DNA from: an uncultured Flavobacteriaceae bacterium
GTDB taxonomy: Bacteria > Bacteroidota > Bacteroidia > Flavobacteriales > Flavobacteriaceae
NCBI GenBank assembly: GCA_963698455.1
Contig: CAVOQU010000012.1
Span: 83,395-147,394 of the forward strand
Length of the DNA stretch: 64,000 nt
Reading direction: 5' to 3'
Each line of letters opens with the position of its first letter. Position 1 is the stretch's first letter. The notes under the pieces were generated by a model. That model searched no databases and was not told the origin of the DNA. It saw only the letters and a program-made list of their open reading frames with translations. Position numbers and translations under genes: made by a program. Positions 23,765 to 30,211 of this stretch are shown here, in pieces.

Positions 23765-24148
23765 TTTGTCATTTCCGCGAAGGCGGAAATCTTAAACTTA
23801 TTATAGATGTTTAATGAAGACACATATTATATTTACATTATGACAAATAAGAAAAATGGTGTAATTTATATTGGAATGACGGGAAATTTTAAGCAAAGAA
23901 TAAATCAACACAAGAAAAAATATAGCAGCGGATTTACAAATAAATACAATTTAGATTTATTGGTTTATTATGAAAAATTTCAGAATCCAAACGAAGCAAT
24001 TAAAAGAGAAAAACAAATAAAAAAATGGAATAGATCATGGAAAATCAATTTGATAAACGATTTTAACCCAGATTGGAACGATTTAAGTTATTTTTTTAAC
24101 ACTTAGGTAGAATAATAAAAAGATTTCCGCGTTCGCGGAAATGACAAA
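23765..24148 (+). mobile_element. REP-flanked GIY-YIG nuclease cassette (putative selfish element)
   Basis: 28-bp inverted repeats at 23765-23792 (TTTGTCATTTCCGCGAAGGCGGAAATCT) and 24121-24148 (AGATTTCCGCGTTCGCGGAAATGACAAA), one mismatch, enclosing a single GIY-YIG ORF. No target-site duplication visible. Confidence 0.7.
23807..24106 (+). CDS. Stand-alone GIY-YIG nuclease family protein
   Basis: YYIYIM (GIY), IYIGMT (YIG), conserved R in QRINQH, E in AIKREKQIK, and C-terminal WKINLI...NPDWNDL. Confidence 0.93.
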   Translation: MFNEDTYYIYIMTNKKNGVIYIGMTGNFKQRINQHKKKYSSGFTNKYNLDLLVYYEKFQNPNEAIKREKQIKKWNRSWKINLINDFNPDWNDLSYFFNT

Positions 24149-24158
24149 GACATTTTAA

Positions 24159-25565
24159 ATGACAAAATACAATTTATATACACATTACAAAAAAATTCTG
24201 GCAGATACTATTACACCTGTTAGTATTTATTTGAAAATTAGAGATAAATACCCAAATAGTATATTGCTTGAAAGTAGCGATTACCATGCCAATGATAATA
24301 CGTTTCTCATACATCTGTTTTAACCCTATTGCAACTATTAAGGTTGAAAACGAAACTATTTTTCAAACTTTTCCTGATGGAAGCGAAACTTCAAATCCAA
24401 TTACTAAAACTACCGATGTTTCCGAAGAAATTAATCAATTCACCAAACGTTTTAAAGTGAATTCTGAAGAAGAATTTCAAGTTTATAAATAATGGTATTT
24501 TTGGCTACATCGCTTATGATGCAGTAAGATATTTTGAAGATGTTGAAATTTCAAAAAAAGAAAATTCAGTAGCAATTCCAGATGTTAATTATGCTGTTTA
24601 TCAAAATATTATTGCCATAAATCATCATAAAAACGAAGCATATATTTTTGCGCATTGTTTTAATTCTGAACCTAATATTGAAGAAATAGATCATTTAATT
24701 AAAGTTAAAAACTTTGCGTCTTACAACTTTTCTTCAAATGGAGATATTAACTTCGAATTTAACTGATGACGAATACAAAAACCATGTAGAATTAGCAAAA
24801 AAACATTGTGGACGTGGTGATGTATTTCAATTGGTATTGTCAAAAAGTTTTTCACAGGAATTTAAAGGCGATGAATTTAATGTATATCGTGCTTTAAGAA
24901 GTATCAATCCGTCACCATATTTATTCTATTTCGATTATGGAAATTTTAAAATATTTGGAAGTTCTCCAGAAGCACAACTTGTTGTGAGCGATGGAAAAGC
25001 CGAAATACACCCAATTGCTGGAACTTTTAAACGAACAGGAAACGATACTCAAGATGCCGAATTAGCTCAACAATTGGTTGTAGACGATAAAGAAAATGCA
25101 GAACATGTTATGCTGGTAGATTTGGCAAGAAACGATTTAAGTAGACATGGCAGCGACGTTACTGTAGACACCTATCGTGAAGTTCAGTTTTTCTCACACG
25201 TTATCCATTTAGTTAGCAAAGTTACAGGACAGAAACACAAAGAAACCTCAACCATGCAGATGGTTGCCGACACTTTTCCTGCTGGAACTTTAAGTGGTGC
25301 GCCAAAGCACAGAGCGATGCAACTTATTGAAAAATACGAAAAAACGAGTCGTTCTTTTTACGGTGGCGCTATTGGGTTTATGGATTTTGATGGTAATTTT
25401 AATCACGCCATTATGATACGTACATTTTTAAGTAAAAACCACAAATTACATTGGCAAGCAGGTGCAGGAATAGTATCTAAATCAAGTCCGGAAAACGAAT
25501 TAGAAGAAGTATATAATAAATTAGGGGCCCTAACAAAAGCTATTGAATTAGCTGAAGAAATATAA
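24159..25565 (+). CDS. trpE: Anthranilate synthase component I (several frameshifts in the 5' half)
   Basis: Manual start MTKYNLYTHYKKILADTITPVSIYLKIRD; C-terminal INPSPY, GSSPE, PIAGT, EHVMLVDLARND, FPAGTLSGAPK. Confidence 0.93.
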
Positions 25566-25691
25566 TTCCTGAGTAGGCAGGAAATCCTCCAAGAGGAAAC
25601 AATAAACATAAGTCCATTAAAACATTCGTGTATTCGTGGCAAAGAAAAATTAAATTAATTAAATATAGATTCCTGCTTTCGCAGGAATGAC
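25566..25691. repeat. Inverted REP pair between trpE and trpG
   Basis: TTCCTGAGTAGGCAGGAAATCC directly after the trpE stop, and AGATTCCTGCTTTCGCAGGAATGAC at 25667-25691. Confidence 0.8.
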
Positions 25692-25697
25692 AAAAAA

Positions 25698-26264
25698 ATG
25701 ACGAAAGTACTAGTTATAGATAATTACGACAGTTTTACATACAATCTTGTACATTATTTAGAAGATTTAAATTGCGATGTTACCGTTGTTAGAAATGATA
25801 AACTAAGTTTAGATGACGTGGAGCCTTTTGATAAAATTGTATTATCTCCAGGACCTGGAATTCCAGATGAAGCTGGTTTATTAAAACCAATTATTAAAAG
25901 ATATGCACCTACAAAAAGTATTTTAGGGGTTTGTTTAGGACAACAAGCTATTGGTGAAGTTTTTGGAGGTTCTCTTATTAATTTGGAGGATGTATATCAT
26001 GGTGTTGCAACAAAAGTAACCATTTGTGTTAACGATGAATCCTTATTTAAAGGCATGGATAAAGAGATTGAAGTTGGTCGTTATCATTCTTGGGTGGTAA
26101 ATCCAAATTTACCGGATTGTTTAGAAGCCACTTCTTTTGATGCAAACGGACAAGTGATGTCGTTACGTCATAAAGTTTACGATGTAAAAGGTGTACAATA
26201 CCATCCAGAATCGGTATTAACACCAAACGGAAAACAGATATTAAAAAACTGGTTATCAAATTAA
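25698..26264 (+). CDS. trpG: Anthranilate synthase component II
   Basis: IDNYDSFTYN, SPGPG, GVCLG, QYHPES. Confidence 0.96.
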   Translation: MTKVLVIDNYDSFTYNLVHYLEDLNCDVTVVRNDKLSLDDVEPFDKIVLSPGPGIPDEAGLLKPIIKRYAPTKSILGVCLGQQAIGEVFGGSLINLEDVYHGVATKVTICVNDESLFKGMDKEIEVGRYHSWVVNPNLPDCLEATSFDANGQVMSLRHKVYDVKGVQYHPESVLTPNGKQILKNWLSN

Positions 26265-26330
26265 GCAAAAGACAAAAAATTAAAAATCAAAAGAAAACAC
26301 TTGTGATTTCGTGCCTTAAAAAATAAAAGA

Positions 26331-27324
26331 ATGAAAATTATATTAAACAGACTTATAAATCACGAAAGCATTTCCAGCGAAGAAGCAAAACAGGTTTTGG
26401 TAAATATCTCAAAAGGAGATTATAACCAAAGTCAAATTGCAGCTTTTCTAACCGTTTATCATGATGCGAAGTATCACTCTTGAAGAATTACGAGGTTTTC
26501 GAGATGCACTTTTAGAATTATGTATTCCTATCGATTTAAAAGATTTTAATGCGATTGATTTATGTGGAACTGGTGGTGATGGAAAAGACACCTTTAACAT
26601 TTCAACCTTAGCATCTTTTGTAACTGCTGGTGCAGGCGTAAATGTTGCAAAACATGGAAATTATGGTGTGTCATCTACTTGTGGATCTTCAAATGTTATG
26701 GAATTTTTAGGTATTAAATTTTCAAGTGATGAAGATTTTTTAAAACACTCTATTGATAAAGCTGGAATTTGTGTTTTACATGCACCTTTGTTTCATCCAG
26801 CTATGAAAAATGTGGCACCTATTCGTCGCGAATTAGGTGTAAAAACCTTTTTCAATATGTTAGGTCCTATGGTAAATCCATCATTTCCAAAAAATCAAAT
26901 GGTAGGTGTTTTTAATTTAGAATTGCTTCGTCTGTATGGATATCTTATATCAAAATACCGATAAAAATTATTCCATTGTTCATGCTTTAGATGGTTATGA
27001 TGAAATATCTTTAACAGGACCAACCAAAGTGATTTCAAATCATGCAGAAACCATGTTTTCACCAGAAGATTTAGGACTTTCAGAAATAACGCAAGAATCT
27101 ATTTTTGGAGGAAACACAGTAGAATCATCTGCCAAAATTTTTATGAATGTCATTCAAGGGAAAGGTACAGAAGCACAAAACAATGTGGTTTGTGCCAATG
27201 CTGGTTTAGCAATTGCAACCGCAAATCAAAATTGAGTCATAAGACAGGTTTTGAACTAGCAAAAGAATCTTTATTAAGTGGAAAAGCAAAACGAGTTTAG
27301 TAAATTAATGAATTAAGTAAATAA
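26331..27324 (+). CDS. trpD: Anthranilate phosphoribosyltransferase (frameshifted)
   Basis: DLCGTGGDG, FNIST, KHGN, TFFNMLGP, DGYDEIS. End coordinate approximate. Confidence 0.9.
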
Positions 27325-27354
27325 GTCAATACGAGAGAAACGACGAAGTAATCT
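27325..27354 (+). repeat. Single REP half between trpD and trpC
   Basis: GTCAATACGAGAGAAACGACGAAGTAATCT resembles the left arms at 28481 and 28902; it starts directly after a TAA. Confidence 0.7.
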
Positions 27355-27393
27355 CTAAAGAATTAGAGCTAAAATGCAATGATTCAAGAAAAA

Positions 27394-28170
27394 ATGAATA
27401 TACTAGACAAATAGTAGCGATAAACGCATTGAAGTCGATTTAAGAAAATCGTTAATTCCTGTTAAACAATTGGAACAATCAGTTTTATTTGAAAGACAAA
27501 CCATTTCATTAGCAAATAAATTACGATCAATAGTCAAACAGGAATTATCGCAGAACATAAACGTAGGTCACCTTCAAAATCTGTTATCAATCAAAACTTA
27601 AATGTATTTGATGTCGCAAAAGGCTATGAAGATGCAGGTGTTTGTGGGATGTCTGTTTTAACCGATGGAAAATATTTTGGTGGTTCTTTAGACGATTTAT
27701 TAACTGCACAGAGCAAGTTGTAATTTACCACTTATTACGTAAAGAATTTATTATTGACGAATACCAATTATTAGAAGCTAAAGCCTATGGTGCCGATGTT
27801 ATTTTACTAATTGCAGCTATTTTAACCAGAGAAGAAATCAAACAGTTTTCAGAATTTGCAAAAAGCTTAAATTTGGATGTGTTATTAGAAGTTCATAATG
27901 AAGAAGAATTACATAAATCCATCATGCCAAGTTTAGATATGTTTGGTGTAAACAATCGAAATTTAAAAACCTTTGACGTCAGTTTAGAAACCAGTAAAAG
28001 ACTTAAGTAAACTAATTCCAAACGATTTTGTAAAAGTATCAGAAAGTGGTATTAGTACTATTGAAGCCATTAAAGAATTACAACCTTATGGATATCAAGG
28101 TTTTTTAATTGGTGAAAATTTTATGAAAACCGATAATGCAGGTGAAAGTGCAAAACAATTTATATAATAG
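27394..28170 (+). CDS. trpC: Indole-3-glycerol phosphate synthase (frameshifted)
   Basis: IIAEHKRRSPSK read manually; LLRKEFIIDEYQ, EVHNEEEL, GVNNRNLKTF, VSESGI. End approximate. Confidence 0.88.
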
Positions 28171-28189
28171 AACTATTACGAAGAGAACA

Positions 28190-28932
28190 TGAAACTATAA
28201 AGAAGATTCTGCTGGCAATGCAAAATATCAAATTGGGATGAAATATCAGACATGCAAGTTGCAGCCTTGCAACCAGACTATCTTGGTTTTATATTTTATG
28301 AAAAATCTGCAAGAAACTTTGATTCTAAAAACATTCCTAAATTACCTAAATCCATCAAAAAAGTAGGTGTTTTTGTTGATGCAGATTTAGAATGTTGTTA
28401 TTGAAAAAATAAAAACACATAATTTACAGGCAGTTCAATTGCATGGTGATGAATCTCCTGAATATTGTTTAAAATTAAAACGTCATTACGAGGCGAGAAA
28501 CAACGAAGTAATCTCATCAAAAGAAGCAGATTGCTTCGACTTTGAAAAAAAGTCTCGCAATGACGATAAACTAGAAATCATCAAAGTATTTTCCATCAAA
28601 GACGAATTCAATTTTGATGTTTTGAAACCTTATGAAGATGTTTGCGATTACTTTTTATTTGACACCAAAGGAAAATTACCAGGAGGCAATGGTTACACTT
28701 TCGATTGGAATGTTTTAAACAATTATCCATCAACAAAACCTTTCTTTTTAAGTGGTGGAATTGGATTAGAAGAATTAGAAAACTTAAAAAATTTAAACAA
28801 AGTAAGGCTTCAAAATATTGTTATGCCATCGATGTGAATAGCAAATTTGAAATAGAAGCAGGATTAAAAAATATAGAATTATTACAAAAATTTAAAGACA
28901 CTGTCATTACGAAAGAGAAACGACTGAAGTAA
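28190..28932 (+). CDS. trpF: Phosphoribosylanthranilate isomerase (frameshifted, with in-frame REP insertion)
   Basis: PDYLGFIFY, VGVFV, QLHGDES, FLFDTKG...GGNG..FDW, FFLSGGIG, IDVNSKFE. The 5' end is garbled, so the start is approximate. Confidence 0.85.
28481..28565. repeat. CGTC-tagged REP dimer inside trpF
   Basis: Outer arms CGTCATTACGAG / CTCGCAATGACG and inner arms CGAAGTAATCT / AGATTGCTTCG. Confidence 0.88.
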
Positions 28933-28987
28933 TCTCATAATTTGAAATTTAAAACAAACAGATTGCTTCACTGCGTTCGCAATGACG
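28902..28987. repeat. REP dimer overlapping the trpF 3' end
   Basis: TGTCATTACGAA...TGAAGTAATCT / AGATTGCTTCA...TTCGCAATGACG. Confidence 0.88.
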
Positions 28988-29026
28988 ATAGTATAAAATC
29001 AAAAAGACTCTTAAATGACAAAAATT

Positions 29027-30211
29027 ATGAAATTACAACGTTAACGAAAAAGGTTATTATGGCGAATTTGGAGGTGCATATATTCCAGAAATGCTATATC
29101 CAAATGTGGAAGAATTACGCCAAAATTATTTAAAAATAATGGCAGAACCCGACTTTAAAAAAGAGTTCGACCAACTTTTAAAAGATTATGTAGGACGTCC
29201 TTCTCCACTCTATTTTGCAAAACGACTTTCTAGAAAAATACAACACCAAAATATATTTAAAGCGTGAAGATTTAAATCATACTGGTGCACATAAAATCAA
29301 TAATACCATCGGGCAGATTCTCATGGCAAAACGTTTGGGTAAAACCCGAATTATTGCCGAAACTGGAGCAGGTCAACATGGTGTTGCCACTGCTACCGTT
29401 TGTGCTTTAATGGGACTGGAGTGTATTGTTTACATGGGTGAAATTGATATTGCACGTCAAGCACCAAACGTGGCTCGTATGAAAATGTTAGGAGCTACGG
29501 TTGTTCCTGCATTATCAGGAAGTCGAACTCTAAAAGATGCCACTAATGAAGCCATTCGCGATTGGATTAACAATCCTGTTGACACGCATTACATTATTGG
29601 TTCTGCTATTGGTCCGCACCCCTATCCAGATATGGTGACGCGGTTTCAATCGGTCATTTCCGAAGAAATAAAATGGCAATTAAAAGAACAAGAAGGTCGT
29701 GAAAATCCTGATTATGTGGTGGCTTGTATTGGTGGTGGTAGTAATGCCGCAGGTACATATTATCACTTTTTACACGAAGAAGATGTTAACATTATTGCTG
29801 TTGAAGCCGCTGGTTTAGGCATCGATTCTGGTGAAAGTGCTGCCACTTCAGTATTAGGAAAAGAAGGTATTATTCATGGTTGCAAAACCTTGTTAATGCA
29901 AACTAACGATGGGCAAATTACAGAACCCTACTCCATTTCCGCTGGATTAGATTATCCTGGTGTTGGTCCAATGCATGCTCATTTATCAAAAACAGGTCGT
30001 GCTGAATTTATGTCTATTACAGATGATGATGCTATGGAAGCTGGTTTAGAACTCTCAAAATTAGAAGGTATTATTCCAGCTATTGAAACATCACATGCGC
30101 TTGCTATTTTCTAACACAAAATCTTTAAACCAGACGATGTGGTGGTGGTAAGTCTTATCTGGTCGTGGAGATAAGGATTTAGACACGTATATTAATTATT
30201 TTAAATTATAA
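29027..30211 (+). CDS. trpB: Tryptophan synthase beta chain (frameshifted)
   Basis: [52 protein letters not shown]. Confidence 0.95.

Follow-up and report, generated by a model that had tools for sequence, protein, structure and literature searches.

CGTC-tagged REPs are described as multi-copy units of 20-40 bp with a terminal CGTC (or TGTC) and a stem of 8-9 bp, often arranged in opposed pairs; dimers located in ORFs encode 20-30 amino acids, and the class is said to be without a dedicated transposase (Di Nocera, De Gregorio & Rocco 2013, BMC Genomics 14:522, PMC3733652). In-frame dimers of CGTC and GTAG REPs are known from several phyla, CGTC repeats have been reported in Bacteroidetes, and the Rickettsia elements RPE-4 and RPE-6 are counted as CGTC repeats (PMC3733652). 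A second group of hairpin repeats, termed NTS and SRM, is associated with the Ssn nucleases (Chenal et al. 2025, Nat Commun 16:2388, PMC11893778). The Ssn proteins are encoded by small single-domain GIY-YIG (cd10448) genes bracketed by repeats, NTS being CGTCATTCCCGCGMAVGCGGGAATCYRG and the Neisseria NTS reading CGTCATTCCCGCG..GCGGGAATC (PMC11893778). Their published activity is cleavage of ssDNA near NTS (PMC11893778), and no Ssn protein is known to transpose or copy its repeats.

The stretch of DNA analysed here (the window, 64,000 nt, C12:83395-147394) comes from genome G000 (3.70 Mb, 17 contigs, ~33% G+C), which belongs to a Mariniflexile species, and carries an 85-bp palindrome at 28481-28565 (+ strand; sequence CGTCATTACGAGGCGAGAAACAACGAAGTAATCTCATCAAAAGAAGCAGATTGCTTCGACTTTGAAAAAAAGTCTCGCAATGACG) within trpF (phosphoribosylanthranilate isomerase, PRAI; 28189-28932, + strand). 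Like the CGTC REPs of Di Nocera and colleagues, the repeats of this family have a CGTC tag, occur mostly as opposed pairs, form in-ORF dimers of 20-30 amino acids and have no dedicated RAYT. Unlike them, the trpF family is linked to an Ssn-like GIY-YIG gene as candidate partner, and several repeat families are found at one codon position; the earlier survey places its stress on replication and repair genes and contains no trpF or Flavobacteriaceae cases (PMC3733652). The likeness to the Ssn/SRM systems consists of the head CGTCATT, the tail AATCT and an oriented hairpin with the same head/tail layout as in NTS, together with inverted copies that bracket a single-domain GIY-YIG gene and a separate repeat subfamily for each nuclease clade. 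However, in the Mariniflexile arms the AT-rich core is longer and the SRM pattern does not match, the associated proteins are putative nucleases, and translated copies within genes are not described in PMC11893778.

With the Rickettsia RPEs (Ogata et al. 2000, cited in PMC3733652), the insert shares the character of an in-frame palindromic repeat in the surface loop of a still-functional gene. RPE-1 is longer (~100-150 bp) and belongs to an obligate intracellular alphaproteobacterium, whereas the trpF insert is a dimer of 33-37 nt units and its host is a free-living marine flavobacterium. The REP/REPIN-RAYT systems of Proteobacteria are also similar, being short non-autonomous hairpin repeats, often in inverted doublets, with a single-copy enzyme gene flanked by repeats; in contrast, their tag is GTAG and not the CGTC found in G000, where there is no Y1 (HUH) transposase and the associated gene is of the GIY-YIG type. 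A search of the literature on in-frame hairpin repeats in Flavobacteriaceae or in trpF returned nothing specific. In-frame CGTC REP dimers are already known (PMC3733652) and the link between Ssn nucleases and repeats was published in 2025 (PMC11893778); two aspects are modestly new, namely that a CGTC repeat found within an ORF now has a candidate GIY-YIG partner, and that a single codon position is a hotspot at which several repeat families occur and cassettes are exchanged. The trpF case shows that RPE-like 'selfish DNA in coding sequence' extends beyond bacteria with tiny genomes or an obligate intracellular life to free-living marine Flavobacteriaceae, where it affects the core biosynthetic enzymes TrpF and PurL.

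The palindrome is bounded by outer arms of 12 nt each, CGTCATTACGAG (28481-28492) and CTCGCAATGACG (28554-28565), which are 92% complementary, and the inner segments CGAAGTAATCTC and CAGATTGCTTCG pair too. Computational folding of the 97-nt stretch containing it, as a single strand, gave one long interrupted hairpin with an energy of -18.5 kcal/mol for DNA (z -5.5) and -32.3 kcal/mol for RNA (z -7.3), and 0 of 200 shuffles folded as well. In this fold the arms pair with each other, while a single arm shows by eye just ATTAC/GTAAT, ~5 bp. Both arms terminate in CGTC/GACG. The left arm (28481-28515, + strand; match to the unit GTCATTRCGA..GAAGYAATCT at C12:111876-111908) consists of the head CGTCATTACGAGG, a copy-specific loop and the tail GAAGTAATCTC. 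The right arm (28528-28565, - strand; unit match C12:111922-111958) is of the same family in reverse and reads CGTCATTGCGAGACTTTTTTTCAAAGTCGAAGCAATCT on the minus strand, giving a tail-to-tail dimer of CGTC-headed hairpin repeats that is read through as RHYEARNNEVISSKEADCFDFEKKSRND. The first-pass annotation of this DNA had described an 85-bp CGTC-ended palindrome that lies in frame in trpF and adds ~28 amino acids, a description borne out by the arms, the fold z-scores and the read-through of the ORF.

The family unit comprises a head (C)GTCATT[AG]CGAGG, a variable core and a tail GAAG[CT]AATCT, and the two trpF arms are inverted copies of it. In the window the head motif was counted 6 times (0.88 expected), and GTCATTRCGA heads occur 138 times in G000 against ~12 expected. 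Full arms of the family number 40 in the genome (28-50 nt), and convergent head>...<head dimers number 35 (71-124 bp), which end in CGTC, less often in TGTC or AGTC; the trpF copy (C12:111876-111958) and a further one at 28902-28987 are both among them. The copy-specific loops of the trpF insert are unique within G000, including the right-arm internal loop GACTTTGAAAAAAAGTC, which is common to the orthologous trpF inserts described below. An Rfam search yielded no match on the element, and two chance-level matches nearby only. Tandem dimer arrays with periods of ~125 bp and ~110 bp are present at C2:257097-258170, C2:261277-261752 and C2:521636-521936. Another dimer, at C1:115876-115957, lies within an open frame that continues through it (..RHYEEERRSNLFGLRDCHRKLEIFFAMT..) and for 46 and 41 codons on its two sides, though this frame may be a fragment of a frameshifted ORF.

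In the G000 assembly trpF is spread over three frames (28252-28404, 28439-28837 and 28705-28932), as judged from the ORF list, three-frame translation and the Pfam PRAI profile (PF00697). The ORF 28439-28837 spans the insert, reading ...QLHGDESPEYCLKLK-RHYEARNNEVISSKEADCFDFEKKSRND-DKLEIIKVFSIKDEF... (right flank also written DKLEIIKVFSIKDEFNFDVLKPYEDVCDYFLFDTKGKLPGGNGY...), and scores 41.9 bits against PF00697 (cut-off 22.7). The insert shares its frame with the conserved TrpF blocks directly on either side, as it does in the intact ORFs of relatives; that the assembled gene is not a single ORF had been missed in the first-pass annotation. Alignment with five relatives located three lesions: ~27 extra garbled bases towards the 5' end (28198-28250), one inserted base at about 28393 (+1) and one lost base at about 28780 (-1). 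The Asp is present in G000 TrpF (FLFDTKG), and the Cys region is garbled by assembly indels.

Since trpE, trpD, trpC and trpB of G000 are split too, each trp gene over 2-4 frames, and since non-3n indels are denser in the trp genes than in part of the neighbouring genes, one could read trpF and much of the operon as decaying pseudogenes, in which case an 'in-frame' insert would be without consequence in this genome. Against this, 10 of the 15 G000 genes compared with proteins of M. fucanivorans DSM 18792 (genus-mate G009) are found in 2-4 frames, including unrelated genes, one of them on contig C7, and the residues near the trpF breaks are still highly conserved. The frame is broken overwhelmingly by insertions of one base (+1) outside homopolymers, a signature of uncorrected long reads and not of the usual deletion-biased gene decay, and completeness is only 93.6% for a 17-contig assembly. 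We therefore consider decay of the operon unlikely. Because they pervade the assembly and are mostly +1 insertions, the frameshifts are probably assembly or uncorrected long-read consensus errors, and the G000 assembly is flagged here as indel-rich. Indel-rich examples are found at 24150-30114 of the window and at C7:489311-490480. The nature of the insert is unaffected by these frameshifts, since the same insert is found in clean assemblies of relatives.

From a search with PF00697 in 40 relatives and a scan of a single genome for each species, 87 usable trp loci were obtained, and intact orthologs were retrieved with the profile and extracted as open frames. The same insert is present in intact trpF ORFs (232-270 aa) of M. 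fucanivorans, of three further Mariniflexile genomes (G005, G010 and a MAG) and of Algibacter sp. 2305UL17-15. These copies share one origin, as they include the copy-specific loops that are unique within G000. In most Flavobacteriaceae the distance from ..EYC to IIKVF is 7-16 residues (for example KQLKSESVE), and the insert is absent from M. jejuense, which reads LKLK-FVASTTV-EIIKVF (LKLKFVASTTVE); its FVASTTV segment may be a deletion remnant of the insert, to which it shows a weak similarity (12/16 nt). RPE-like behaviour, a parallel drawn in the first-pass annotation, is seen among the orthologs, with an ORF (232-273 aa) that is kept open and with alleles that lack the insert in M. jejuense and in other genera. 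Where orthologs have long loops, these carry the same palindrome or a sister palindrome, and a non-palindromic loop of equal length was not found among them.

The site is populated by a range of further alleles. Truncated copies of the insert are found in M. sp. AS56 and an Algibacter MAG, eroded copies in Winogradskyella bathintestinalis and G006, and copies with further arms nested inside in M. aquimaris and UBA6231. A sister family, CGTCATGCTGAACTTGTTTCAGCATC.. (RHAELVSASH..), occupies the site as a dimer in M. sp. HMF6888 and G003 and as a single 30-nt arm in Wocania and M. sp. HNIBRBA6329; a third family reads CHFERSRE.., and hybrid forms occur in M. soesokkakense, G007 and Flavivirga rizhaonensis. 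A tree of TrpC, TrpF (loop masked) and TrpB requires at least 21 state changes at the site, a count from a quick search that recombination may distort. In the flanking DNA the sister species AS56 and soesokkakense share 90-97% identity, but from just after EYC to LEIIK they are completely different. In addition, the 4-5 residues before the repeat co-vary with the repeat type, LxLK with type A (the trpF-type arms of G000) and xALKK with type B. The swap between these two sisters and the co-varying residues point to exchange of cassettes through conserved flanks, besides arm replacement and nesting, and we infer that the loop cassette has been exchanged between lineages by homologous recombination via these flanks. 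This natural allele series (empty, single arm, dimer, nested, swapped) could serve as material for studying the movement or recombination of Ssn-type nucleases and their repeats.

The class features of PRAI are the (beta-alpha)8 fold with a catalytic Cys on beta1 and Asp on beta6. An AlphaFold2 model of M. fucanivorans TrpF (45 aligned sequences) has a mean pLDDT of 85.6 and shows a confident eight-stranded barrel, its top structural matches are PRAI structures (TM 0.81-0.85 normalised to PRAI), and C5 and D150 are invariant among the 45 TrpF sequences. Counting strands in the model, QLHG closes beta4, ESPEYC..LK forms helix alpha4 (residues 82-97), beta5 corresponds to IIKVFSI, and beta6 bears the catalytic Asp (in FLFDT). 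Helix alpha4 extends about eight residues into the insert, and residues 99-117 have a pLDDT below 50. In a sequence comparison with T. maritima PRAI (1NSJ/1LBM), the insertion point lies between residues 95 and 96. In the model the insert lies in the alpha4-beta5 loop, a surface loop after the QLHGxES helix on the face away from the catalytic one, and is predicted to be mostly disordered; the first-pass annotation had placed it in a short surface helix/loop after QLHGxE. The alpha-to-beta loops of TIM barrels form the N-terminal face, opposite the catalytic face. Position on the face opposite the active site makes tolerance of the insert plausible.

The evolutionary regime of the insert was compared with that of its flanks in six type-A trpF orthologs. 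The flanking trpF codons diverge by 0.065, 0.049 and 0.368 at codon positions 1, 2 and 3, the pattern of ordinary purifying selection at the protein level. The insert diverges by 0.155, 0.188 and 0.126 at the same positions, without codon periodicity; the contrasts between insert and flanks are significant in both directions (permutation p<=1e-4), and the dip in third-position divergence matches the borders of the insert. Amino-acid identity is 66% in the insert and 90.5% in the flanks, indicating that the peptide sequence is not what is conserved.

These values bear on whether the 28 residues have been domesticated, conferring on TrpF a novel trait, for instance in oligomerisation, in the binding of a partner or in regulation. 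In favour of this, at least six lineages have the insert in frame, a lengthening of helix alpha4 by its first residues is predicted, and T. maritima PRAI reportedly uses the N-terminal barrel face, on which the insert lies, for dimer contacts. However, codon positions 1 and 2 change 3 times faster in the insert than in the flanks, with the loss of amino-acid identity given above; residues 99-117 are modelled with very low confidence; and in sister species the site holds an unrelated repeat peptide, a truncated copy or no copy at all. Domestication is, on these grounds, very improbable, and of the two possibilities offered in the first-pass annotation, a tolerated or a domesticated peptide, the first stands and the second is dropped.

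Something besides plain neutral decay nevertheless acts on the insert, as divergence at its third positions (0.126) is far below that of the flanks (0.368), and divergence of the insert does not scale with that of the flanks: between Algibacter and Mariniflexile the insert differs by 0.12-0.24 and flank third positions by 0.43-0.49. The low divergence of the insert may stem from weak constraint at the nucleotide level, from conversion by other copies or from a cassette that spread laterally at a later time. A rival reading would have the insert kept by selection on the nucleotide sequence with the peptide as a by-product, either (a) in the form of an mRNA hairpin by which translation or stability within the polycistronic trp message is tuned or (b) as a DNA hairpin recognised by an Ssn-like nuclease, with the site as recombination breakpoint. 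Such selection would fit the 3-fold greater conservation of would-be synonymous positions with its sharp borders, the decoupling from flank divergence even across genera, the strength of the RNA hairpin, the presence of the same family at the trpF stop and of other arms at gene ends within the operon, and cassette swaps that break exactly around the repeat; SsnA has also been reported to shorten recombination tracts near NTS (PMC11893778). It is opposed by the pattern of change within the hairpin. Compensatory changes were absent, with 0 of 29 pairs changed on both sides and 86% of cells paired, equal to shuffles, although six sequences give this comparison low power, and conservation was not significantly higher in heads and tails than in loops (Fisher p 0.18). 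The element is moreover absent, eroded or truncated in some species, and later lateral spread of the cassette explains the low divergence equally well. We regard selection at the nucleotide level as rather improbable. With neither codon periodicity nor compensatory pairs, the insert appears to be a passenger that the enzyme tolerates rather than a domesticated peptide.

G000 gave no match to the RAYT transposase profile (Y1_Tnp, PF01797) at E<=0.01, the control being positive in 6 of 14 genomes, and the head tetranucleotide of the family is CGTC, not GTAG. A RAYT-type REP was rejected on the absence of Y1_Tnp from G000. The description of the element as a REP dimer can therefore be kept for its two inverted CGTC-ended units but not in the RAYT sense, the arms flanking an Ssn-like GIY-YIG clade instead. 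Four small Ssn-like GIY-YIG ORFs are present in G000, each between inverted hairpins of its own subfamily (Pfam GIY-YIG 53-60 bits, 84-86 aa); these paralogs were found by tblastn with the GIY-YIG gene of the window. The latter gene (23840-24097, + strand; Pfam 60 bits) is located just upstream of trpE, in a segment at 23768-24145 bracketed by inverted hairpins of another subfamily (GTCATTTCCGCGAAGGCGGAAATCT; GTCATTTCCGCG..CGGAAATCT). Ssn-like genes are also found within a few kb of the trp operons of G003 (G003:C1:3082322) and G010 (G010:C1:2862958).

The paralog at C2:257547 sits within arrays of trpF-type (type-A) arms; the array C2:257097-258170 encloses this gene (C2:257547-257798). Type-A arms are present on both sides of the gene in 6 of 6 loci of the C2:257547 clade (genes with >=73% identity; G000, G008 twice, G014, G010 and G009), and in 0 of 5 loci of the other Ssn-like clades, which have their own hairpins instead. 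The type-A arm family is thus linked to one Ssn-like clade, and the long-orphan CGTC REP class gains a candidate partner enzyme clade. G005 has the trpF insert without a close ortholog of the linked clade. The degenerate SRM pattern HGTCWYN(0-2)YYVSBRHN(0-5)WNVSBRGN(0-2)RNCYNB has 4 matches in the genome, compared with 1-3 in shuffles, and none in the window. We call the arms SRM-like and not SRM, as the published pattern fails on these AT-richer arms, and it is only through architecture and gene linkage that they can be placed with the SRMs. The partner of the repeat is likely a small Ssn-type GIY-YIG single-strand nuclease and not a RAYT transposase.

Taken as a whole, the reading that we prefer, with a probability of about 0.72, is that the palindrome, a tail-to-tail dimer, is a non-autonomous and MITE-like member of a family of CGTC-headed hairpin repeats, belonging to the CGTC REP superfamily and resembling NTS/SRM, which would be mobilised through ssDNA cleavage by an Ssn-type partner. 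One copy would have landed in the DNA for the alpha4-beta5 loop of TrpF, on the barrel face opposite the active site, and would have survived selection for the frame because it contains no stop codon in its frame and keeps that frame. The insert is presumably translated as ~28 extra residues, the first eight or so lengthening helix alpha4 and the rest forming a disordered loop. The decorated enzyme would tolerate the insert and remain active, the sequence of the peptide being free of selection. The cassette, with 4-5 flanking codons, would since have been exchanged between lineages within Mariniflexile and neighbouring genera, while single arms were replaced by other families, further arms nested, and copies were trimmed or lost.

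A more far-reaching idea, which we hold to be quite doubtful, is that the hairpin cassettes in trpF and purL are working targets of Ssn-like nucleases, which would cut ssDNA at the arms and so make recombination breakpoints. If this were true, incoming or replicating ssDNA would be cut at the arms, and loop cassettes with a few flanking codons would be swapped between species and genera; the arms would be re-templated from other copies and so be kept far more uniform than neutral sites. The Ssn/repeat system would then shape mosaic housekeeping genes from within the coding sequence.

The insert in the alpha4-beta5 loop is not the sole copy within a gene. The second dimer of the same family (28902-28987, + strand; C12:112297-112380 in the genomic list), linked to the first copy through repeat families D2, D5, D6 and D8, lies across the 3' end of trpF: its left arm encodes the last TrpF residues (..TVITKEKRLK) and, in the arm tail, the TAA stop at 28930-28932. 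The TrpF C-termini of relatives read ..TVITKEEQLK or ..TVITMNEERMKK, and ..KYFKEKLKE where the repeat is absent. Repeat-derived tails (..TVITKEEQLK, ..HLSFRT, ..CHFE) are seen in many Flavobacteriaceae TrpF proteins. Such repeats explain odd low-complexity loops and C-termini, these three tails among them, in annotated flavobacterial proteins.

In purL of G000 (C7:536012-536083, minus strand, locus L113), an in-frame dimer of the trpF-type family reads VIASGTKQSVSNKEIASSQTPRND and is located in the linker before the glutaminase domain. Comparison of this linker across 14 genus-mates showed the dimer in G000, G005 and G001 and a single arm in G009 and G004; other repeat families are found in G014, G002, G011 and G003, and nothing in G010, G007, G008, G006 and G013. 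The linkers of G011 and G003 contain a PSPSPKE(S/R)G repeat related to MNKDKRNTPQSIPSPLGRVRVGL. The latter lies on the 5' side of trpF: several Mariniflexile trpF frames (L043, L019, L022 and L026) are open upstream through MNKDKRNTPQSIPSPLGRVRVGL, which looks like another repeat family that is translated. Finally, TrpF and TrpB form a single open frame of ~610-670 aa in many Flavobacteriaceae, with a fusion end reading ..GRGDKDLxNYIxYFKI (loci L050, L052, L054, L061-L062, L065-L066, L068-L070, L074, L076-L084, L086, L088-L089, L092, L100 and L111).
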